NCBI RefSeq assembly: GCF_025273655.1
Contig: NZ_CP045921.1
Span: 510,001 to 542,000 of the forward strand
DNA: 32,000 nt
From: Candidatus Saccharimonadota bacterium
Lineage (GTDB): Bacteria; Patescibacteriota; Saccharimonadia; Saccharimonadales; Saccharimonadaceae
Direction of reading: 5' to 3'
The notes beneath the pieces are model-generated. The model saw only the letters and a list, made by a program, of their open reading frames with translations, searched no databases and was not told the DNA's origin. Of this stretch, positions 11,528 through 19,766 are shown piece by piece; within the stretch, counting starts at the first letter, position 1, and each line of letters starts with the position of its first letter. A program made the position numbers and the translations under genes.

Positions 11528-13130
11528 TACTAAAAGTAGAGCCATGGTTGAGGCGACTTTTGAGTTCTATGGTCGTGCCAAGTTTTGCGGCAAGTTTTTT
11601 GGCGACATGTAGACCGAGACCAGTGCCTCGTGTCTCGCGCGTACGATAATCTTCGCTGCGATAAAATTTGTCAAAAATCTTCTCCTTGTCAGCTTTGCTA
11701 ATTCCAATCCCAGTGTCAGTAACAGCCAGAGTAACATGGCTTCGAGAGACAGTCGCGTGGAGCGTGACCGAACCTTGCTTGGTATATTTAATAGCGTTTG
11801 TCAAAAAGTTTTGCAGAAGTTCGCCGAGGTATAGCCTACTTGCAACTACTGAGCCAAGTTTATGTGGTGTATCAAGATTAAATTGTAAACCCGCTGAGTG
11901 TGCTGATTGGCTGTATTCGTGATACAGGCCATTAACCAGCTCTGTGAGATCAATATGTTCTACTTCGTCTGCAACGCCACGTTCGGCTCGCGATAGTGTG
12001 CTGAGGTCGTTAACCATGCGCGAGAGAAAAACCATCTGCTCGTGAGCTGCTTTCAGGGCTGGGCGGATACGATCTGGCGAGTCAAGCCCTTTGTCATACA
12101 TAGCCTCTATATTGCTTAGGGTGCCTTCAGCGATAGTGAGCGGTGTGCGGAGTTCATGACTGACGACGCTGATAAACTCATCGCGCTCTTCGTCGAGATT
12201 TTTCTGCTTGGTTATATCGCGAAGCAACAAGATAAATCCTTGGTCGATGTCGAGGCGAGCATGATGTTTTCCGACGCGGATAGGCGTGATTGAAACCTCC
12301 AGGCGGACAATGTCGTCGGAGTATTTGTAGAACAAGTCGTCATGCACCACGGTATATTTGCTCTTTTTCATGAGCGGAAATATATGGACACGATGCCCTT
12401 CTTCATCTCGTATTTTGAAGATCTCATCAATATGGTGCCCGCTTGGTGAGCCGTTTGTGTCGAGAATACTGAGGGCGGCAGCATTGTACATGCGGACAAT
12501 ACCGTGACTGTCGACACTGAGTACGCCTTGAGCGAGGTTGTTCATAAGCGTCGAAACTCGGTAACGCTCAAGCTCCGCCTGGGCTTTGCTGTGCTCAAGC
12601 ACGGCTTGTCGTACCCCTTGTATACGCAAGATGGCACTTACTACCACAGTAATGGCGACAAGAGCCAGTACCACAATTATGATATCGGCAATATTTGGTA
12701 AGCGAAGCTCAATTGCACGGTATATGTCGAGTATGATACCCAATGTGAGGACAGTAGCCGTCAAGATAAGTCCTTTGATACTGTAGACGCGGTATCCTTC
12801 GTAGAGGAGTAAGATCAATGCGAGACTGAGTAACGAGCCAAATCCGCTCGAGGTGAGGACGAGTCCAATCGCTACAATCTCTAGTGCCACAGTGCGAGCG
12901 AGCAGTATACGTGGATCTTTTTCGTGCGAAAGTATACTATAGCCTGCTAGTATGGCGCCACAAAACACCAGGAGAAAGAACACGCCTGAGCCCATGTAGC
13001 GCGTCTGGGGCAAAATTCCCACCATGACTAAATACCCTTGCAGCATAAAGAGGAGTGCGAATACAACACACGCCACACGTAACCACTTACCAGTCCTAAG
13101 TGCACGCCTGTTTTGATATTTCCTCGTCAT
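11496..13130 (-). CDS. sensor histidine kinase (multi-TM N-terminus, PAS-like region, HisKA, HATPase_c)
   Basis: H-box FISVVSHELRTPL, N-box LLQNFLTNAIKYT, G-boxes DTGIGI and GTGLGLHVAKK. AGGAG RBS. No response regulator in the window. Confidence 0.9.
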   Translation of the reverse strand: MTRKYQNRRALRTGKWLRVACVVFALLFMLQGYLVMVGILPQTRYMGSGVFFLLVFCGAILAGYSILSHEKDPRILLARTVALEIVAIGLVLTSSGFGSLLSLALILLLYEGYRVYSIKGLILTATVLTLGIILDIYRAIELRLPNIADIIIVVLALVAITVVVSAILRIQGVRQAVLEHSKAQAELERYRVSTLMNNLAQGVLSVDSHGIVRMYNAAALSILDTNGSPSGHHIDEIFKIRDEEGHRVHIFPLMKKSKYTVVHDDLFYKYSDDIVRLEVSITPIRVGKHHARLDIDQGFILLLRDITKQKNLDEERDEFISVVSHELRTPLTIAEGTLSNIEAMYDKGLDSPDRIRPALKAAHEQMVFLSRMVNDLSTLSRAERGVADEVEHIDLTELVNGLYHEYSQSAHSAGLQFNLDTPHKLGSVVASRLYLGELLQNFLTNAIKYTKQGSVTLHATVSRSHVTLAVTDTGIGISKADKEKIFDKFYRSEDYRTRETRGTGLGLHVAKKLAAKLGTTIELKSRLNHGSTFSITLPLEQPEK

Positions 13131-13166
13131 GATTGCTCCTAGTATACCCTACGAAGCATAAGCGTT

Positions 13167-13856
13167 TCAAATTGTAGGCGAATATTGCTTGATTGTGCGA
13201 CGATGTGCACTGTACTCCGGGTCAGCTTGCTCAACAAGTTGCCAAAAATCTCGGCTGTGATTCATCTGTTTTGTATGACATAATTCATGGATTAACACGT
13301 AGTCAATCAGCTCAAATGGCAGTTGCATAAGCGCAATGTTGAGGCTAATCGTGCCCCTACTACTGCAGCTTCCCCATCTGGTACTGGCATGTGAAAATCG
13401 GACACGCTCGTATTTACATCCGAGCTCGTCGGCAAGAGTGGAAAGGCGACGAGGTAAATAGTGCCTGGCTTCTTTGCGGAGTGCAACCAGAGTGTGTTCA
13501 CGTACCAACTGCTGTACGGCTGCGTCCGTGAGGTTGTAAGTCGGTGGTAACGTCAAAACAAGCTTGAGTTGTTGTCGCTTCAGGTGGAGGTTTGGTCCAC
13601 TTGTTACTAAGAGTGAGTGACTCTTGCCGATCTGCATGCCATCTGCGTAGGCAACTTTGGGCGCATGCTGCGTTAGCATGCTGCGGATTTGTGTGCGTGA
13701 ATCGGCGATGAGTTTTTTGAGACTGCGTGTGCTTGCGAATACTGGCATAGAGGCCCTCAGCATACCATTTGGTGCGACACTCAGCGTAATTGAGCGTGAG
13801 CGATGACTTTTGCGGATCGTAATAGCGCCAAATTCATCATCGGTATATATTGCCAC
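13167..13856 (-). CDS. YgjP-like (DUF45/M48-type) metal-dependent hydrolase
   Basis: C-terminal HELCHTKQMNHSRDFW (HExxH...H..FW), typical of the YgjP family. GTG start lies 6 nt after the upstream stop. Confidence 0.75.
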   Translation of the reverse strand: MAIYTDDEFGAITIRKSHRSRSITLSVAPNGMLRASMPVFASTRSLKKLIADSRTQIRSMLTQHAPKVAYADGMQIGKSHSLLVTSGPNLHLKRQQLKLVLTLPPTYNLTDAAVQQLVREHTLVALRKEARHYLPRRLSTLADELGCKYERVRFSHASTRWGSCSSRGTISLNIALMQLPFELIDYVLIHELCHTKQMNHSRDFWQLVEQADPEYSAHRRTIKQYSPTI

Positions 13857-13862
13857 GAGTCA

Positions 13863-14474
13863 CTATCCTATTTTGATCGAGTTTCCCTTGAGGGTTTGGC
13901 GTTTGGGTACCGTTAATGGTGTCTGGGCGGGGCGATTTGGATCGGCTAAGCGCCTCAGTATAGCGCGTAGTTGCGAGGCGTAGGTGTGTTTGCCGCTGAT
14001 TACCACGGCTTTCTCCTCTTCTCCAGGCGCCGTAAAGCGTTTCGCAAGATGTGCGTAGCGCTCATCAGGAAGGATAAAAATCTTGTCTTTATTGACTCGA
14101 CTCGCGCGCGTTGCACGATCATATGCAGTGTCGCCATCTGTTTGTACCCACACGAAGAGTGGCTCGTAATTATGCTTACGGATCCATTTGGCGAAGTTTT
14201 GCCTATCTACCTTAGCCTCGGTACTTGTTTCAACTAGAAATGTCTGCGAAGTCTTGAGAAGTTCGCTAATCTGCAGCATTACCAGTCTGTCGACGGTTTT
14301 TTGCTCGGCGGTATCGTAGACAGGATTTTGTGTGATGATACCGCGCACTTGGTCTGCCTCGACGTACGGCACGTTAAACGTCTCCGCGAACTTACTTGCA
14401 AACTGGGTTTTACCCACTCCAGGCTTACCGATCACGAAAATCACCCGCGGCGTAGTCAGACTCAACGATTTCAT
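13863..14474 (-). CDS. P-loop NTPase / kinase-like ATP-binding protein
   Basis: Walker A VIFVIGKPGVGKTQF. Start set at the ATG at 14474 (TATACT 7 nt upstream). The longer ORF to 14660 reads antisense through tRNA-Trp (GIEPRSS artefact). Confidence 0.7.
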   Translation of the reverse strand: MKSLSLTTPRVIFVIGKPGVGKTQFASKFAETFNVPYVEADQVRGIITQNPVYDTAEQKTVDRLVMLQISELLKTSQTFLVETSTEAKVDRQNFAKWIRKHNYEPLFVWVQTDGDTAYDRATRASRVNKDKIFILPDERYAHLAKRFTAPGEEEKAVVISGKHTYASQLRAILRRLADPNRPAQTPLTVPKRQTLKGNSIKIG

Positions 14475-14528
14475 ACGTATCAGTATAGCAGATAGTAGCC
14501 GTGCGGGCGAAATCAGGGCCTGATATGA

Positions 14529-14557
14529 TTTACATTTGCTAGAGGGATTGATATAGT
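14529..14557 (+). promoter_or_regulatory. promoter of tRNA-Trp (TTTACA-N17-TATAGT)
   Basis: Hexamers with a 17-nt spacer, ending 15 nt before the mature tRNA 5' end. Confidence 0.5.
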
Positions 14558-14572
14558 GATACGAGCTGCTAT

Positions 14573-14647
14573 AGGGGTATAGTACAGCGGTTAGTATATC
14601 GGTCTCCAAAACCGACGACCTAGGTTCGATTCCTAGTACCCCTGCCA
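14573..14647 (+). tRNA. tRNA-Trp (anticodon CCA), CCA end encoded
   Basis: Manual cloverleaf: acceptor AGGGGTA/TACCCCT, anticodon stem TCGGT/ACCGA with loop CTCCAAA, T-arm CTAGG-TTCGATT-CCTAG, discriminator G plus CCA; 75 nt. Confidence 0.93.
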
Positions 14648-14705
14648 ATATAAATGACACACTGTCAAAGGTATGTCATTTATATTTTATGCTATAATCA
14701 CAGAT

Positions 14706-15044
14706 ATGAACACCCACCAACTACAACTTGCCACCGTGCCATTTGATGCTATTACATCAGGCGCAAAAACGATTGAATCACGACTATATGATGAAAAACG
14801 CCAAACAATCCAGATTGGCGATACTATTGTCTTTACGAACCGAGAAAACACCGATCAAACCGTATCGGTAAAAGTTATCGGCTTGCTGCGCTACGAAACA
14901 TTCCACGATCTTTTCTCTCACAATGACCCTGCTAAGTTTGGTGGAGAGAGCGTTGAATGGCTTGAAAACCAGATCAACGAATTCTACTCTGTTGAACAGC
15001 AGAGGCAAGATGGCGTTATCGGCATCGAATTTGTGCTCCTGTAG
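14706..15044 (+). CDS. stand-alone ASCH (PUA-like) domain protein
   Basis: PFDAITSGAKTIESRL ... IQIGDTIVF ... GVIGIEFVLL matches the ASCH layout (GxKTxExR, C-terminal IEF). Start at the ATG at 14706 has an extended -10 (TGCTATAAT) ending 7 nt upstream. Confidence 0.7.
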   Translation: MNTHQLQLATVPFDAITSGAKTIESRLYDEKRQTIQIGDTIVFTNRENTDQTVSVKVIGLLRYETFHDLFSHNDPAKFGGESVEWLENQINEFYSVEQQRQDGVIGIEFVLL

Positions 15045-15045
15045 G

Positions 15046-15074
15046 TTGCATAAAACCATAAACTCTGTTATAAT
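15046..15074 (+). promoter_or_regulatory. near-consensus promoter (TTGCAT-N17-TATAAT with TG extension) upstream of the GC-rich gene
   Basis: Lies in the low-GC spacer and overlaps the stop of the ASCH gene. A leader of about 58 nt ends in a GGGAGG RBS. Confidence 0.55.
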
Positions 15075-15138
15075 CACTACCGTCCTATCCACCTGCTAGG
15101 TCAACCAAAAAATCCTAGCAATCATCGGGAGGTGTACC

Positions 15139-16482
15139 ATGACCGCATCAACGGTCATTAACAACGTTGTCATTCGCCCTGCGGCGTCTGATGACTTCGA
15201 GTGGGTCGCCGACCTCATGGTTCGGGCGCTCAGCCCGTTCTACGACGGCGACCATCGTGCGCACGCACAGCGCATCTTCGACACCCACATGGAGGGTGGC
15301 GTCGACCACGTCGGTCACTTCTCGGCTGGACAGTACATGTTCATCGCCGAGCAGGACGGGCAGCGGGTCGGCATCATCCACGTCGTGGAGAAGAAGCAGG
15401 AGACGGTGAAGATCAGTCCGCTGATCGTTAGCACCGACTACCGTGGGAAGCTGGGAATCGGAAGCATGCTGCTCAAGCACGCTGAAGAGTTCGCCCGCAA
15501 CCTCGGTGCTCGGCAGCTATACTGCACCGTCGCCTCACCGAACCAGAAGGCGTTGGAGTTCTTCCTCCGGAAGGGCTTCCGCATCACTGGTACGGCGAAG
15601 GATCACTACAAGCAGGGTGTCGACGAGCACATGCTGTACAAGCAGCTCGTGGACGAGGCGGGTTTCGACTCGCCCAATGTCTCGGTGATCCCCTTCGACG
15701 AGGAGAATCACGCTGAAGGCGCGCGGAAGCTCATTCTGTCGCAGATGAGCGATGTTTTCCGTGGTGTGGACGACGATTGGGTTGACGCCCTGTTCGCTGG
15801 CTACAAGCGGAAAGAACTTGGCGACGTGAATGCCAAGTACAAGATCATCTTCACCGCCGAGTGTGGTGGTCAGGTGGTCGGCATCGCTGGCGCTACACCG
15901 AAGAAGGGTCAGCCCATCAAGCTGATGCCGCTCGTGACGTTGTCGGAGGCAGCGTTCGAAGCGCTTGTCATCGACCTTCAGGGATTGCTGGCGGACTACG
16001 GTCACAAGCTGTACGTTCACCTCGTTCCCGAACCGTGGCAGGTCGCCTGCCTCCAGCGTCACGGCTGGACGCTCGAAGGTGTGTTCCCGGGAGGGTACGC
16101 ACCGAACAGTGTCGTGCAGCAGTGGGGACTGAACTTCAACAAGGAAGGAGCAACCGTGCGTAAGATGCGCATCAAGCGTCCGTACTACGACGCGATCATG
16201 TCGGGTCGCAAGACCCTGGAGGTTCGCGTCGGATACGACAACATCAAGCGGCTGAGGGCCGGGGAGATGTTGCAGCTCGAGACCGGACACACGTCGGGGG
16301 TGGTGAGGATCAAGTCGATCCGCATCTACAACAACTTCGCCGATATGCTGGCGACCGAGCCGTGGCGAGAGATCGTCCCTCAGGTCAACAGCGAGGCGAT
16401 CGCCCTCCAGCTCCTACGCGAGATCTATCCCGCACACAAGGAGCGTCTCGGTGTTCATGTCATCGAGGTCGAGAAGCAGTAG
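15139..16482 (+). CDS. GNAT acetyltransferase - second GNAT-like domain - ASCH domain fusion protein (447 aa)
   Basis: Domain 1 has the acetyl-CoA motif (YRGKLGIGSMLLKHAEEFA). Domain 2 is GNAT-like without that motif. The C-terminus RPYYDAIMSGRKTLEVRV...GVHVIEVE is ASCH. Sampled lines are 62-67% GC with GC3-rich codons, and there are many shadow ORFs. Confidence 0.85.
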   Translation: MTASTVINNVVIRPAASDDFEWVADLMVRALSPFYDGDHRAHAQRIFDTHMEGGVDHVGHFSAGQYMFIAEQDGQRVGIIHVVEKKQETVKISPLIVSTDYRGKLGIGSMLLKHAEEFARNLGARQLYCTVASPNQKALEFFLRKGFRITGTAKDHYKQGVDEHMLYKQLVDEAGFDSPNVSVIPFDEENHAEGARKLILSQMSDVFRGVDDDWVDALFAGYKRKELGDVNAKYKIIFTAECGGQVVGIAGATPKKGQPIKLMPLVTLSEAAFEALVIDLQGLLADYGHKLYVHLVPEPWQVACLQRHGWTLEGVFPGGYAPNSVVQQWGLNFNKEGATVRKMRIKRPYYDAIMSGRKTLEVRVGYDNIKRLRAGEMLQLETGHTSGVVRIKSIRIYNNFADMLATEPWREIVPQVNSEAIALQLLREIYPAHKERLGVHVIEVEKQ

Positions 16483-16620
16483 GACAAAACGGGGTTCGCA
16501 TTCCTGAGACGGAGTAATCCGCTCAATCGTGCGAGTGACTTGGGCTAGTGTCACTGGTGCCTGACTTAAGGTACCGAACAACTAGCCTGCTTTCTTTGGA
16601 AATTATATTACACCACAATA

Positions 16621-16650
16621 GGTTCGATAATCATCCTTCAACCCCTGCCA
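16621..16650 (+). repeat. degenerate direct copy of the tRNA-Trp 3' end (attR-like remnant)
   Basis: GGTTCGAT-AATCA-TCCTTCA-ACCCCTGCCA compared with tRNA GGTTCGAT-TCCTAGT-ACCCCTGCCA. That is 22 of 25 aligned positions with one 5-nt insertion. It does not fold as a tRNA. Confidence 0.5.
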
Positions 16651-16657
16651 TGAAAAT

Positions 16658-16685
16658 CGTCAGACTTTTTAGTCTGGCGTTTTTC
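16658..16685 (+). terminator. rho-independent terminator
   Basis: CGTCAGACT-TTTT-AGTCTGGCG followed by TTTTT. An outer extension CCATGAAAA/TTTTCATGG lengthens the stem. Confidence 0.75.
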
Positions 16686-16767
16686 ATGGCACATAGCAAG
16701 CTGAGGATTATGCATCACAAACTGATTTGATGGATAGGGGGTAATAGTTTTATACTTGAGACAGTTT

Positions 16768-18057
16768 ATGCGGCTCTCTCGAACACACGCACCAGAAGCG
16801 GATACCTTTGTACCTTCGATCGACCTACCACCAATGCCGGGCGACATAGGGAGGATGGACGGTGCGGTACGCGACTCCCATCGCAACACAGAACCTGCAT
16901 TTGGTAAATTTATGCGATGGACCAGTGCATCTACTCTGGGGGCGGTAGCTGCTGGTGCCGTCTGGCTAGGAGCTGATATTGTTCATGGCGTGCACGATGG
17001 ACGTGAAGCTGTCCAGAGTAGTCATGCTATGGTGCATGAGGTATACGGGAGCCATACAGAGATTGATGTGCTTCATGCTCATCATGGCACTTTTGTGCTG
17101 ACGGGCCTAGGCACCAAAAACCCCACCAAAACTGCCGAAGTCCTTGAGGTACATAAGGAGGCCGGTCAGGTCTTCGCACTTGAATACAGCAACCGCGATC
17201 TGGACACAAAAGATATGGCAAAACGTGTCATTGCAACTGCAAAAACGCACGAGTTGACTGAAATATCGTTTGACGGGTATAGTGCCGGCGGGCCAATCGC
17301 TCTGGATATAGCAGCCCACATTAGGGAGATGGAGCCGGAACTAAATATCGTTGCAATTGTCTTCAATAGTTCGCCCATCGGCGACGATAGCCTCACCGAC
17401 AGGAGTAGGGAGGGCATAGATCTTATGCAGACAATACTCTCGGTAGATGAAGATCTAGCGTATTATCTCAAAGGGCGTATAGCTACCGAGCTACTAGCAC
17501 GTAGCGATCGTTATATCGAGCGGTCACCCGCAAGTGATCGTCGTCTTACAATTCATAGCTACAAGAGTTTTGACTATAATGGTACTCATTATGAAGTACT
17601 ATACCCAAACATCTTACCGGAGTTGTATGACATCATTGATAAGCTTAGCGACGAAGATGCCGCTAGTGCAATGCTCATATGGGAGCAAGCCAAGTTTATT
17701 GTGCAGACTGACTACGAAAAAAATATTGCTACACTCCCAGAAGATACTCTCATCGTCTACACCTGTGCCTGGCAAGAATCTGACGACCAGGTTGTTGCTA
17801 CTAATCCAAGTGCCACAAACCTACAAGTTGCTGCCGAGAAGCATAATCTGCAGTTTAAGCTCATAAAAGCCCAGGTGGGCCATGCGAATCCGGGCGAAGA
17901 CACAGCTCAATATACCAATATGATACGCCAGATCCAGCCATACATTACTAACCGTCTCGTTAAAATCGTGCTGCCACGCGAAATGGCCACTCATGCCCTA
18001 CCTTCATCGACTGAGCCGAATGCGCAGGTTAGAGCAGAGGCTGCGCCACCACGCTAG
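16768..18057 (+). CDS. membrane-anchored alpha/beta-hydrolase-like protein (putative esterase/lipase)
   Basis: One TM helix (STLGAVAAGAVWLGADIV). Nucleophile elbow GYSAGG (GxSxG). Start is uncertain: ATG at 16768 with TATACT 11 nt upstream, while the ORF track uses TTG at 16756. Confidence 0.55.
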   Translation: MRLSRTHAPEADTFVPSIDLPPMPGDIGRMDGAVRDSHRNTEPAFGKFMRWTSASTLGAVAAGAVWLGADIVHGVHDGREAVQSSHAMVHEVYGSHTEIDVLHAHHGTFVLTGLGTKNPTKTAEVLEVHKEAGQVFALEYSNRDLDTKDMAKRVIATAKTHELTEISFDGYSAGGPIALDIAAHIREMEPELNIVAIVFNSSPIGDDSLTDRSREGIDLMQTILSVDEDLAYYLKGRIATELLARSDRYIERSPASDRRLTIHSYKSFDYNGTHYEVLYPNILPELYDIIDKLSDEDAASAMLIWEQAKFIVQTDYEKNIATLPEDTLIVYTCAWQESDDQVVATNPSATNLQVAAEKHNLQFKLIKAQVGHANPGEDTAQYTNMIRQIQPYITNRLVKIVLPREMATHALPSSTEPNAQVRAEAAPPR

Positions 18058-18740
18058 AGGGAGATGTCGACAAGGCTTTTGATATAGTCATAAATTGCGT
18101 AGCCGCGGACTGGCTCTTGGCCGGCGACAAAGGTTGTCGGTGTGCTATAGATATTAGCGGCATACGCTTGTGTGTCGGCTTGCTTGATAAGATTGTCGTA
18201 CCGATTATCGCGTAGACACGATGACAGCTTAGTCTCATCGAGTCCTGCTCCCTGGGCAATGCGTGCTGCGGGGAAATCTGTAAAAAACGATACACCGTTG
18301 ACTTCGACAGTGCGGCCATTGCTGCGAGTAAGTGCATCACTTACGAAATCCGATGTATCCATAAATTTTCCCTGTTCATTGCCACACATGAGTAGCTCGG
18401 TAAGTGCAGCCGACTGCTCAGTGACAATACTCAGAGGGCGAATTTCGAGATCAATTTTGCCTGTTTTGGCATAGTCATCGTAAAGTGGCTTAACAGTTGC
18501 GGAGTGAAATGTAGCGCATTTGTCGCAGACTGGATCGGTATAGATGACGACTTTGGTGCTCGCACTTTTGTTGCCGAGCGAAACACTTAGTGGTGCTTGA
18601 GCTGGCGCGGTATCGCCTGTCGCATGTTGCTGCCAAAACATACGAAAGCCCACTATCGCTAGCACAACTACGCATACAATTGCCGCCACAGCGATGATGA
18701 CTTTTTTCTGTTGTAACTCAGTTTCGCGAGATATTGCCAT
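18054..18740 (-). CDS. membrane-anchored DsbA-family thiol:disulfide oxidoreductase
   Basis: N-terminal TM helix and thioredoxin-like CxxC (DPVCDKCATFH). Overlaps the convergent hydrolase gene by 4 nt. Confidence 0.75.
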   Translation of the reverse strand: MAISRETELQQKKVIIAVAAIVCVVVLAIVGFRMFWQQHATGDTAPAQAPLSVSLGNKSASTKVVIYTDPVCDKCATFHSATVKPLYDDYAKTGKIDLEIRPLSIVTEQSAALTELLMCGNEQGKFMDTSDFVSDALTRSNGRTVEVNGVSFFTDFPAARIAQGAGLDETKLSSCLRDNRYDNLIKQADTQAYAANIYSTPTTFVAGQEPVRGYAIYDYIKSLVDISL

Positions 18741-18779
18741 AGTGTTGTTAGTATAGCAGCTTGCAAGAGTGCCTGCGAC

Positions 18780-19766
18780 CTACTTATGCTTTTTGCTTGG
18801 TTTTTTGCGTTTTGATACGCGAACTGCTCGACGAAACTTTCGCTCTACTTCACCGTCGGCAAAACGCGCAATTGGAGTGTGGACAATAAGGCGTTCCGCG
18901 GGTGTCTTGACATCCCGGTCAATATCTTCCACCATCTGCACGAAATTTTTCTCGATAAGCCACTCGCGTCCGGGGAGTGTCTGACCTATGACGCTAATAC
19001 GCCAGAGATCGTCGTTCCAGCGTTCGGCATACGTAATCTTGAGCGGGCTTGCGAGCATGGTTGCGCCTGTCGGAATCGTGTTGATAATTGCTTCAATTGC
19101 GCGCTCACCACGTGCACGGTCGCGCACAAATACATCGACAGCCATGGTGCGTACGCCTTTTGGTGAGACGTGCACTGCCTGGATTTGCTGATTGTGCACC
19201 CAGACGACTTCCCCGCTAAGCGTGCGGATTTTGGTAGAGCGCAGTGTCATACGCTCTACGACGCCGCTGAGATCAATAAATGGCTCGATCTTCACAAAAT
19301 CACCGATCGTGTACCATTTTTCGGCAATCATCATTGCGCCAGTAGTTACGTCGCGGATTACCATGCCGAGACTTTGACCAGCAAATACGATAAAAAATGC
19401 GCTGGCACCGACCGCCGCGATACCGCTAGTCATACCTAATCCCGAAGCTGGACTGAGGAGGCGCCATAGTACATAGGCGGTCACGACGACGATTGCCGTA
19501 CGAACGACCGCAATGGCTATACTGAGATATGTTTCGAGTTCACGGTAGCGCTGAGCCTTGACTTCGTCGGATTCGTTGTCGCTGCGTATGGCAATGTTTT
19601 GAGCTACATGGATAATCGCCCTAGCAATATATTTACTAATCCAGATGGCAACGACGATACAGCCGATCATAATCAAGACCGAACGCAGCGCATTTGGCTC
19701 GGCAAAAAAATCCCGTACCTCGAGGAGTACGGTATGAAATATTTGGTCTTGATCGGAGCTATTCAC
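18780..19766 (-). CDS. mechanosensitive ion channel (MscS family)
   Basis: TM helices followed by the MscS beta-domain motif GDFVKIEPFIDLSGVVERMTLRSTKIRTLSGEVVWVHNQQI. GTG start with TATACT 8 nt upstream. Confidence 0.85.
   Translation of the reverse strand: MNSSDQDQIFHTVLLEVRDFFAEPNALRSVLIMIGCIVVAIWISKYIARAIIHVAQNIAIRSDNESDEVKAQRYRELETYLSIAIAVVRTAIVVVTAYVLWRLLSPASGLGMTSGIAAVGASAFFIVFAGQSLGMVIRDVTTGAMMIAEKWYTIGDFVKIEPFIDLSGVVERMTLRSTKIRTLSGEVVWVHNQQIQAVHVSPKGVRTMAVDVFVRDRARGERAIEAIINTIPTGATMLASPLKITYAERWNDDLWRISVIGQTLPGREWLIEKNFVQMVEDIDRDVKTPAERLIVHTPIARFADGEVERKFRRAVRVSKRKKPSKKHK

Follow-up and report, generated by a model that had tools for sequence, protein, structure and literature searches.

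A conserved three-part unit in a Saccharibacteria genome

The stretch of DNA analysed here (the window; 32,000 nt, positions 510,001 to 542,000 of contig NZ_CP045921.1 of a Candidatus Saccharimonadota bacterium) carries at 15139–16482 (+) a gene for a 447-aa protein with two GNAT folds and a C-terminal ASCH domain, hereafter the big gene. All positions below are window positions. A sequence-only reading of this DNA had considered that the genome might be a Saccharibacteria-like one, which is correct, and had taken the gene for a likely acquisition from a high-GC donor, possibly an actinobacterial host. We found that the big gene belongs, as the large component, to a compact and conserved unit of ~1.9 kb (~14690–16605). 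The other two of its three parts are a stand-alone ASCH gene and a 115-nt RNA with two pseudoknots.

A homologue search returned 879 homologues of the big protein. The best 120 of the 879 were 79–97% identical to it, and the named ones among these 120 came from Saccharibacteria or Nanosynbacter. In a collection with one genome per species, 55 species-level loci (loci are designated by L numbers throughout) carried the big gene at 59–97% identity, nearly all of them in Saccharibacteria. The small ASCH gene preceded the big gene in all 55 related loci that were complete on that side. It also adjoins the big gene in Uhrbacteria and, convergently oriented, in Andersenbacteria; because the pairing survives this change of gene order, the two genes appear to be functionally coupled. 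None of the 12 other neighbour genes in the window was found beside the unit in other loci, save in L002.

Domain architecture of the big protein

The N-terminal GNAT domain (residues ~10–170; 15166–15648, +) matched the Pfam family Acetyltransf_1 (PF00583) over residues 62–148 with 60.8 bits, against a cut-off of 20.7. It has an intact acetyl-CoA loop, RGKLGIG, which is the Gly-rich R/Q-x-x-G-x-G/A motif with a one-residue insertion. The segment YRGKLGIGSMLL begins at residue 101, and among 26–28 homologues G106 was invariant and G108 at least 90% conserved. The middle domain (residues ~182–332; 15682–16134, +) gave no Pfam match, and the Gly-rich loop was absent from it in an internal alignment with the first GNAT. 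As an internal duplicate, it aligns with the first GNAT (E 7e-6) up to RGKLGIG of the latter, where the alignment ends exactly, and it carries a conserved ATPKKGxPIKLMP motif. An AlphaFold model of the big protein, built on 26 homologues, had a mean pLDDT (predicted local distance difference test) of 89.6, and its best Foldseek matches in the Protein Data Bank (PDB) were the tandem-GNAT proteins 2WPW, VipF, and 5KF1 (~370 columns, E 1e-12 to 1e-10). As modelled, the middle domain is a GNAT fold, and the two GNAT folds in one chain form a predicted tandem-GNAT architecture.

The C-terminal ASCH domain (residues ~341–446; 16159–16476, +) matched Pfam ASCH (PF04266) over residues 344–446 with 41.4 bits, against a cut-off of 21.2. 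It contains the octapeptide G-R-K-T-L-E-V-R, of which K358, E361, and R363 were invariant in the family alignment, and its closest PDB relatives were Pyrococcus PF0455 and PH0355 (E 1e-9). The C-terminal domain matches ASCH, and the EVE family was not among the Pfam matches of the big protein. Pfam, AlphaFold, Foldseek, and the internal repeat thus agreed on an active GNAT, a degenerate GNAT, and an ASCH domain, the order that the sequence-only reading had given. Assignment to a specific enzyme family was rejected, as all NCBIfam matches of the big protein were far below the cut-offs.

The small ASCH gene and expression signals

The small ASCH gene (14706–15044, +) encodes a protein of 112 aa from the ATG at 14706 and has a GC content of 0.42; the mechanically called open reading frame (ORF) starts at 14673. 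The protein matched Pfam ASCH (E 2.2e-10; 41.6 bits against the cut-off of 21.2), and its closest PDB entries were PH0355 and PF0455. Its octapeptide is G-A-K-T-I-E-S-R, and the GKER-type pattern GxKxxExR is kept in both ASCH domains of the unit (GRKTLEVR in the big protein, GAKTIESR in the small one).

An extended −10 element, TGCTATAAT, lies at 14690–14698 (+; repeat D18), and its spacing to the gene is kept across species, with TGnTATAAT followed by 7 nt and the ATG also in L002, L004, L005, L006, and L008. No Shine-Dalgarno sequence was seen at 14690–14708. Because TGCTATAAT ends 7 nt before the ATG, the small ASCH mRNA is probably leaderless.

Upstream of the big gene lies TTGCAT, 17 nt, and TATAAT with a TG extension (15046–15074, +), which had been described as a near-consensus, low-GC promoter. 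Its −10 element with the TG extension (TGnTAnAAT) stood up, as orthologous loci keep it at a constant distance. The −35 element did not: it matches only 3 of 6 consensus positions and is not conserved, which is why a simple promoter scan omitted this promoter. The 5′ untranslated region (15082–15119, +; alignment A7) is conserved and contains a GTCCTATCC box and then a hairpin with the arms GCTAGG (15095–15100) and CCTAGC (15114–15119). The stem covaries between clades, as GCTAGG/CCTAGC, GCTACG/CGTAGC, and GCTGCG/CGCAGC. A strong ribosome-binding site, GGGAGG, follows at 15127–15132 (+), and GGAGG or GAAGG is kept in orthologues. From these signals the big gene is predicted to be expressed.

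A structured RNA directly after the big gene

The third part of the unit is a conserved structured RNA of ~115 nt (16486–16605, +), which was recognised by pairing, covariation, and a covariance model (R1) and ends in a U-rich tract. It comprises five helices and a loop-junction pairing (Pa). P1 pairs CGGGG with TCCTG; in Pa, CGCAU of the P1 loop pairs with GUGCG in the junction after P2; P2 has a GNRA loop; and P3, P4, and P5 are AGTGAC/GTCACT, GGTGCC/GGTACC, and GGCTAGT/ACTAGCC, with the U-rich run after P5. Two pseudoknots result, P3 with P5 and Pa with P1.

Across 30–33 distinct sequences, 92% of the cells were paired, as against 26–40% when the partner was slid by 1–3 columns. Both sides changed in 22 of the 35 pairs, and none of 500 shuffles matched the observed values. 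In L009, Pa is kept by a different sequence, UCACGC with GCGUGA. The G·U pairs are consistent with the plus strand only, and the minimum-free-energy fold had a z-score of −3.9. In the clade of L014, the motif occurs without the 3′ strand of P5.

Among the 67 loci searched with model R1, there was exactly one RNA copy per locus where it occurred, always immediately 3′ of the big gene; the model found none in the Uhrbacteria, Andersenbacteria, Actinophytocola, and 64%-GC loci, nor in L042 and L049. A metagenome scan for the RNA core retrieved 39 contigs, 38 of which had the gene immediately upstream on the same strand, while the 39th locus was too short to judge. These contigs include copies whose protein is only 48–53% identical. 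In a 3.5-kb search of Rfam 15, nothing with E < 1 fell on 16483–16610, and in a 231-nt Rfam search the sole match on the element was an 11-bit, chance-level hit on the wrong strand. The RNA is a previously undescribed motif without an Rfam match. Because the U-rich run follows P5, it looks like the terminator of the unit as well. A second terminator-like hairpin with a T-run (16646–16691, +; inverted repeat I3, terminator scan) lies outside the conserved unit.

Lateral exchange and the tRNA slot

The left edge of the unit is marked by a tRNA-Trp(CCA) gene (14573–14647, +; ARAGORN; Rfam tRNA, 68.5 bits), 42 nt past which the unit starts. Between them lies an AT-rich hairpin (14647–14686, +; inverted repeat I5, with 16-nt arms that are 94% complementary), which is also on the tRNA-proximal side in L002 and, with the unit inverted, in L007 and L008. 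On the right, the slot is bounded by a remnant of a tRNA-Trp 3′ half, AGGTTCGAT...ACCCCTGCCA (16624–16650, +), which by sequence comparison is a decayed direct copy of the T-arm and 3′ end of tRNA-Trp (14623–14647). The remnant also follows the unit in L002 and L003, where similarity ends right past it, and its reverse complement precedes the unit in L008. Nucleotide homology between species starts at 14676–14705 and ends at ~16600, ~120 nt past the stop codon. Elsewhere the unit adjoins other tRNA genes, namely Leu(TAG) in L006 and L039, Glu in L009, Tyr in L013, and Asn in L010. In L007 and L008 it is inverted between the same landmarks, the hairpin with the tRNA-Trp end on one side and the remnant on the other.

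Divergence separated the unit from its surroundings. Between the window and L002 (UBA1944), both unit genes had synonymous divergences (dS) of 0.29–0.31 and nonsynonymous divergences (dN) of 0.012–0.024, whereas the flanking orthologues (MscS, a GlgA-like glycosyltransferase, and GH57) had proportions of synonymous differences (pS) of 0.78–0.81, which are saturated, and dN of 0.30–0.40. The unit is >10x less diverged than the neighbouring orthologous genes and therefore moves laterally. In this respect the sequence-only view of the gene as acquired DNA was borne out. L003 has a 94%-identical unit in flanks with a GC content of 0.41 and a GC content at third codon positions (GC3) of 0.34, compared with 0.52 in the window. 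Within the shallow clade of Nanosynbacter-like genomes, unit and flanks are collinear and equally similar (94–95% identity), and the unit is inherited vertically there. Compared with L005–L008, the small gene had pS of 0.53–0.74 and the big gene 0.27–0.36; this gap suggests either recombination breakpoints inside the unit or constraint on synonymous sites of the big gene.

Lateral mobility of the unit within the phylum is mostly shown by these data. Two points weigh against it. No integrase, recombinase, or transposase was found in or beside the unit, with only the two ASCH/GNAT genes and the RNA lying between the repeats. In addition, the inversion in L007 and L008 occurs without obvious long inverted repeats, there being nothing beyond short AT-rich stretches.

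Several features around the unit were also recorded. An extended −10-like sequence, TGTAATATAAT (16603–16625, −), lies just outside the unit and faces into its 3′ end; in L008, where the unit is inverted, its homologue precedes the unit and would serve as promoter for the small ASCH gene. Directly downstream, a 433-aa ORF (16756–18057, +) had no Pfam, NCBIfam, or PADLOC match and does not adjoin the unit in any other species-level locus. On the other side, a P-loop kinase-like ORF (13863–14660, −) with matches to AAA_33, KTI12, Zeta-toxin, and AAA_17 adjoins the unit; it overlaps tRNA-Trp, and its true start is probably internal (MKSLSL...). In Nanosynbacter-type loci, a second, diverged ASCH-like sequence lies ~1.4 kb 3′ of the unit (8750–8899 in L014 and 8872–9026 in L019; also in L026, L028, L031, L032, L034, L035, and L047). 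N. featherlites has an extra DUF3850 (ASCH-like) gene immediately upstream of the unit (6242–6514 in L062).

Why only the big gene is GC-rich

The big gene is a compositional outlier, as the sequence-only reading had noticed from hand counts of single lines; a recount gave GC contents of 61.7% for 15841–15900 and 66.7% for 15181–15240. The ORF has a GC content of 0.598 in a window of 0.506, with 0.632, 0.364, and 0.799 at the first, second, and third codon positions (GC1, GC2, and GC3). The 33 other long ORFs of the window have a mean GC3 of 0.518 with a standard deviation of 0.056 (rounded, 0.80 against 0.52 ± 0.06), placing the big gene ~5 standard deviations above them at third positions only, while GC1 and GC2 are ordinary. 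G or C ends 358 of its 448 codons, in line with the earlier remark that its codons end mostly in these bases. In a 100-nt sliding profile, the GC content rose from 0.43–0.50 to 0.60–0.66 near 15150 and was back to 0.44–0.38 by 16550–16650. The borders of the anomaly are the borders of the coding sequence, and the shift does begin near the ribosome-binding site and fade past the stop codon.

The long shadow ORF pointed out on the opposite strand (15535–16290, −, 251 aa) exists, in the codon-register antisense frame. Stops in this frame correspond to sense TTA, CTA, and TCA codons, of which the big gene has just four, two of them flanking the shadow ORF. The longest antisense open run among orthologues varied from 79 to 446 aa. 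Because its length is not conserved in orthologues, the shadow ORF is a by-product of composition and not a conserved gene. An antisense overlapping gene as the source of the high GC3 was rejected, given that the frame is opened by avoidance of TTA, CTA, and TCA codons and varies in length over the whole of that range.

The excess recurs throughout the family. In 44 of the 44 loci with flanks, the GC3 of the big gene (0.48–0.86) was above the flank mean (0.26–0.61), by 0.09–0.45. L042 had the highest value, 0.86, and the lowest-GC hosts (L040, L041, and L049) had 0.48–0.50. The small ASCH gene has a GC3 of 0.24–0.50, and the unit as a whole therefore does not have a donor's composition.

Synonymous changes were polarised by codon-wise parsimony at third positions on a tree of 42 orthologues. 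The big gene had 928 changes from G or C to A or T and 405 in the reverse direction (2.3:1 from GC to AT), and the shallow clade of the window had 206 and 83. The same procedure applied to the small ASCH gene as a control gave 173 and 233. Because this control suggests a parsimony bias of only ~1.35-fold, we take it that the GC3 of the big gene was once even higher and is still falling, and that its GC excess was inherited by a travelling gene and has ameliorated only in part. This fits an older origin of the tandem-GNAT gene in a GC-richer lineage, followed by pairing with a resident ASCH gene in Patescibacteria; the core gene occurs in high-GC bacteria without the small ASCH partner. Two considerations speak against such a decay. 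Parsimony inflates changes from common to rare states, and the 1.35-fold bias of the control lies in the expected direction. Moreover, the Saccharibacteria and Uhrbacteria copies are both GC3-rich at 46% identity, which is awkward for pure neutral decay, and some selection on synonymous sites may contribute.

It is accordingly worth weighing whether the high GC3 is actively maintained, by selection on synonymous sites (acting on mRNA structure or stability, or against AT-rich signals) or by the biased gene conversion that accompanies frequent recombination. No orthologue lacks the excess, not even in pairs saturated at synonymous sites or in the 46%-identical Uhrbacteria copy; the co-transferred small ASCH gene is not GC-rich; and in several comparisons the synonymous divergence of the big gene is far below that of the small gene (e.g., pS 0.30 against 0.74 in L005). 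However, the net flux from GC to AT is 2.3–2.5:1 even in the shallow window clade while the control is near parity, the GC3 of the gene falls to 0.48–0.50 in the lowest-GC hosts, and genes of ribosomal-protein size near nusG show no GC3 preference. We consider active maintenance unlikely, and inheritance from a GC-richer past the better account. Translational selection for GC-ending codons was not supported, as the other genes of the window, including those around nusG, have ordinary GC3.

Proposed function of the unit

ASCH proteins, among them GKER-type ones from Pyrococcus, Thermus, and human, hydrolyse N4-acetylcytidine (ac4C), both as the nucleoside and in tRNA, and the Lys and Glu of the octapeptide are essential for this activity (PMC6972931; bioRxiv 10.64898/2026.02.27.708502). 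Both ASCH domains of the unit retain these two residues. Many homologues of the big protein are a tandem GNAT alone, and in relatives from Mycobacterium, Corynebacterium, and Rhodococcus a MazG-like NTP pyrophosphohydrolase replaces the ASCH domain. The neighbours of the unit include two NUDIX genes in Uhrbacteria, adenosine deaminase, HIT, and NUDIX genes in N. featherlites, and Ham1, HIT, and NUDIX genes in L063. The known ASCH activity, the domain swapping, and these nucleotide house-cleaning and salvage neighbours point to a nucleobase-type substrate. Taken as a whole, the locus is best explained as a conserved, mobile, three-part unit with a probable role in nucleobase-directed acetylation, an explanation to which we give somewhat better than even chances.

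For the mechanism we tentatively suggest, at less than even confidence, a write and read/erase pair that targets the N4 of cytosine. The N-terminal GNAT would use acetyl-CoA or another acyl-CoA to acylate an exocyclic amine of a nucleobase-bearing substrate, most plausibly cytosine N4, whether the base is part of RNA or of a free nucleoside or nucleotide. The degenerate GNAT would serve as a pseudo-dimer scaffold, which is usual in tandem GNATs. The C-terminal ASCH domain would recognise, and possibly hydrolyse, the same cytosine or N4-acylcytosine moiety, with the small ASCH protein acting alongside as deacetylase or eraser. The unit would be terminated by the 3′ RNA, which, because it is conserved beyond what a terminator needs, would probably also bind one of the proteins or a ligand to regulate the unit. 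Two difficulties count against this proposal. The similarity of the GNAT domain to RimI, streptothricin acetyltransferase, and SpeG-like proteins does not discriminate between substrates. In addition, an acetyltransferase fused to a domain of a deacetylase family is paradoxical unless that ASCH domain is a reader.

Alternatively, the unit could be a toxin-antitoxin or conflict module, in which an ASCH-targeted tandem GNAT acetylates charged tRNA or another nucleic acid as a toxin or defence effector and the small ASCH protein, perhaps with the RNA, neutralises it, in analogy to the predicted (PIN)-GNAT-EVE + ASCH systems. A two-gene unit that has sharp borders, is patchily placed, inserts next to tRNA genes, and is exchanged laterally would suit such a module. 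Distant homologues lie beside a DISARM-like restriction-modification cluster and in a conjugative element (a context seen only for 50%-identical homologues), PADLOC gave a weak match to PDC-M11A, an AAA_33/AAA_17/Zeta-toxin-like gene adjoins the unit in the window, and an ASCH protein is part of nearly all GNAT-EVE operons, an AAA_17 ATPase of many (PMC7641849). Against this, the unit is kept in at least 55 species with very small genomes and under strong purifying selection (dN/dS ~0.08), its two genes have separate promoters, and no ribbon-helix-helix (RHH) or DUF1778 antitoxin is present. The AAA gene (13863–14660, −) is not kept beside the unit elsewhere, and its neighbours in Saccharibacteria loci belong to housekeeping and nucleotide metabolism and not to defence. 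We regard a toxin or defence role as rather unlikely. Membership in a known defence system was rejected, as PADLOC gave only the one weak match, in the GNAT region, to PDC-M11A.

A further alternative is a small-molecule enzyme that detoxifies or builds a cytosine-nucleoside or aminoglycoside-type antibiotic of neighbouring Actinobacteria, with the ASCH domain binding or cleaving its N4-acylcytosine part. The top structural match is a tandem GNAT of the clavulanic acid pathway, NCBIfam indicated similarity to streptothricin and aminoglycoside acetyltransferases, a homologue on a Rhodococcus plasmid lies in a cluster of the deoxysugar-nucleoside type, and there is a homologue fused to a SARP. 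Nevertheless, the NCBIfam similarities are below the family cut-offs, no biosynthetic or efflux genes stand beside the unit in Saccharibacteria, and the conserved RNA and the second ASCH protein would be left unexplained, which makes this role improbable in our view.

The Rhodococcus homologue deserves a separate description. It is of the GNAT-GNAT-MazG-like form and lies on plasmid p1 of Rhodococcus sp. 2G (L106; NZ_CP018064.1, 40065–53027) in a cluster resembling those for nucleoside antibiotics, with genes for dTDP-glucose 4,6-dehydratase, a DegT aminotransferase, a GT4 glycosyltransferase, a methyltransferase, nucleoside 2-deoxyribosyltransferase, and NDP-hexose 2,3-dehydratase, as well as TetR, MFS, and ABC genes. 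The cluster recalls amicetin biosynthesis, in which AmiF, the cytosine-N4 amide synthetase, is reportedly an enzyme of the N-acetyltransferase family that acylates cytosine N4, and a link to the unit is a tentative lead. When homologues were sought with the Rhodococcus gene, all entries retrieved were unnamed or generic GNATs.

The boldest form of the acetylation reading is that the unit is a self-contained mobile RNA-acetylation system of ultra-small bacteria. Its enzyme would be a new kind of writer, independent of ATP, that places N4-acetylcytosine (or a related N-acyl group) in RNA, its eraser would be the small ASCH protein, and the 3′ RNA would belong to a new class of RNAs, acting as target or decoy of the enzyme or as a ligand-sensing regulator. 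We offer this as a long shot.

Homologues and the question of a donor

An exhaustive search of representatives clustered at 50% identity found full-length relatives of the big protein at 34–52% identity, the named ones being from Uhrbacteria (46%), a divergent Saccharibacteria metagenome-assembled genome (MAG; 41%), and Actinophytocola (38–39%). A profile search added Paceibacterota, Andersenbacteria, "Patescibacteria group", and one Acidobacteria MAG. The next-closest homologues (50–53%) grouped with sequences labelled as Patescibacteria, Andersenbacteria and Paceibacterota among them. A neighbour-joining tree placed the Saccharibacteria clade as sister to such sequences, with high-GC forms that have N-terminal extensions scattered at equal distance and Actinophytocola as a deep outgroup. 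Two homologues with 50–52% identity and N-terminal extensions (P0123 and P0121) lie on 64%-GC contigs, in conflict or mobile contexts (L056, 1–6578, and L058, 1–6554): one is beside a DISARM-like cluster (MmeI/Eco57I methylase, helicase, MZB, PLD), and the other inside a conjugative element (ArdA, relaxase, TrwB, and a Multi_ubiq/ThiF pair).

Comparison of the gene with its host showed it to be GC-richer in Uhrbacteria (0.75 vs 0.51) and GC-poorer in Actinophytocola (0.76 vs 0.90), in Andersenbacteria (0.51 vs 0.67), and on the 64%-GC contigs (0.67–0.71 vs 0.75 in the surroundings). The big gene is compositionally foreign almost everywhere, as expected of a family that changes hosts. Carriage by phages or plasmids was rejected as an explanation: protein searches of INPHARED and PLSDB gave only distant single-domain matches, in Actinobacteria, and the single IMG/VR contig with the gene is collinear with ordinary loci. 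This contig (L064; IMGVR_UViG_7000000394_000074), the only one with the gene in a viral collection, is collinear over 2 kb with L017 and L020; it could derive from a cellular genome, or a prophage could lie beyond the part seen.

The sequence-only reading had proposed a recent acquisition from the high-GC actinobacterial host of the epibiont, not yet ameliorated. A GC3 of 0.80 within a genome of 0.51 GC suggests as much at first sight, and Actinomycetota do have homologues, namely the Actinophytocola protein, the tandem GNATs of Rhodococcus, Mycobacterium, and Corynebacterium, and the SARP-fused form. Small ASCH genes occur on Streptomyces plasmids and a phage, and the copies on 64%-GC contigs are 50–52% identical. 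Yet the nearest relatives are Saccharibacteria genes of 59–97% identity that share the GC excess, an outcome that the same reading had itself named as telling against a foreign donor. Actinobacterial copies are 31–39% identical, Actinophytocola at 38–39% included, and mostly have another C-terminal domain (MazG-like). Patescibacteria copies are equally close or closer, the phylogeny places Actinophytocola as a deep outgroup, and in high-GC hosts the gene is GC-poorer than the host. By these comparisons the recent-event form of the actinobacterial origin appears already refuted, and we give the idea very little credence.

We hold with good confidence the evolutionary account as a whole, namely that the unit is old in Saccharibacteria and Patescibacteria and is no recent gift from an actinobacterial host. 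The neighbour-joining tree tells against too firm a reading of this history, being star-like and without support values. An older origin in some GC-richer lineage is possible.

An assembly chimera, which the sequence-only reading had named as something to exclude, has as an explanation of the compositional jump a negligible probability: although many close homologues lie on very short contigs (1.4–6 kb) and two short contigs are binned into Clostridia and Spirochaetia MAGs, the exact big protein recurs on contigs from two sequencing runs that span both junctions of the gene and are 100% identical to the window (a 171.5-kb contig of SRR31609102 over 12139–19482 and a 5.1-kb contig of SRR12142700 over 12702–17821), and the gene pair lies inside long contigs, up to 1 Mb, in dozens of genomes. 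The two contigs in Clostridia and Spirochaetia MAGs (L001, RZZW01000057.1; L045, JARKOY010000128.1) are gene-only contigs of 1.1–1.6 kb and are evidently mis-binned. Most matches of 89–97% identity are on contigs of <6 kb; apparently this common, compositionally odd segment breaks assemblies and misleads binning.

Significance and comparison with known systems

The genomes of Saccharibacteria and other Patescibacteria are tiny, and these bacteria rely on their hosts for nucleotides. Strongly conserved and yet laterally exchanged, the unit therefore likely matters to their biology. It joins an acetyltransferase, two ASCH domains, and a dedicated structured RNA, and the removal of ac4C from tRNA and nucleosides by the ASCH family was shown only recently. 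The unit is a tractable candidate writer/eraser pair for acetylated cytosine in bacteria. New here are the mobile unit with its partner ASCH gene and an RNA motif with rich covariation. The unit is also a clean case of gene-level lateral exchange within a phylum, and a caution that a sharp GC anomaly in the genome of an epibiont does not by itself indicate the host as donor.

GNAT toxin-antitoxin pairs (TacT/AtaT/KacT) consist of a single-domain toxin of ~170 aa and an upstream RHH/DUF1778 antitoxin gene in the same operon. The big protein, in contrast, has 447 aa and three domains, and the upstream gene of the unit is an ASCH gene, with two separate promoters for the two genes.

Small tRNA-associated islets resemble the unit in abutting a tRNA 3′ end, in a partial direct repeat at the far border, in atypical composition, and in the use of different tRNA sites per genome. 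Unlike them, the unit has no integrase, is only ~2 kb long, occurs in both orientations in one slot, and has only one compositionally odd gene of its two.

The GNAT-GNAT-MazG-like proteins of Mycobacterium, Corynebacterium, and Rhodococcus share a homologous tandem-GNAT core with the big protein (30–34% identity over residues 9–330), have a nucleotide-directed C-terminal domain as well, and are annotated only as "GNAT family N-acetyltransferase". They differ in having a MazG-like NTP pyrophosphohydrolase instead of ASCH, and neither a partner ASCH gene nor the RNA motif was seen with them.

The known tandem GNATs (2WPW of clavulanate biosynthesis, Legionella VipF, and a glucosamine N-acetyltransferase of Clostridium acetobutylicum, together with MshD/Eis-type enzymes) also have two GNAT folds and one acetyl-CoA loop. 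They include the best Foldseek matches (E ~1e-12), at 12–15% identity, and their global TM-scores to the big protein are low, 0.26–0.36, because the domains are arranged differently. None of 2WPW, VipF, the clostridial enzyme, and the MshD/Eis-type proteins has an ASCH domain. In MshD the active GNAT is the C-terminal domain, whereas in the big protein the GNAT with the loop is the N-terminal one.

Stand-alone ASCH amidohydrolases and tRNA ac4C erasers (E. coli YqfB, TthASCH, and Pyrococcus proteins) share with the unit the GKER octapeptide with its essential Lys and Glu, the nearest structures (PH0355 and PF0455), and a small protein of ~110 aa. One of the two ASCH domains of the unit, by contrast, is fused to an acetyltransferase, an arrangement outside those studies, and activity in the unit is predicted.

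The closest concept is that of the (PIN)-GNAT-EVE + ASCH (+ AAA_17) operons, for which base acetylation or a toxin-antitoxin function was predicted (Iyer et al. 2013; Bell, Wolf and Koonin 2020, PMC7641849). As in the unit, a GNAT is fused C-terminally to a PUA-like domain that binds modified bases, a separate ASCH protein is encoded alongside, and the distribution is mobile and patchy; both are known from predictions. An AAA_17/AAA_33-type gene also stands beside the unit in the window, although it is not conserved with the unit elsewhere. The two differ in the fused PUA-like domain, which is EVE in those operons and ASCH in the unit, and in the tandem GNAT of the unit, one active and one degenerate, with no PIN domain. 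The structured RNA, the Patescibacteria hosts, and the housekeeping-type neighbours further set the unit apart. Because the fused domain is not EVE, the unit is a variant of the (PIN)-GNAT-EVE + ASCH concept and not a member of it.

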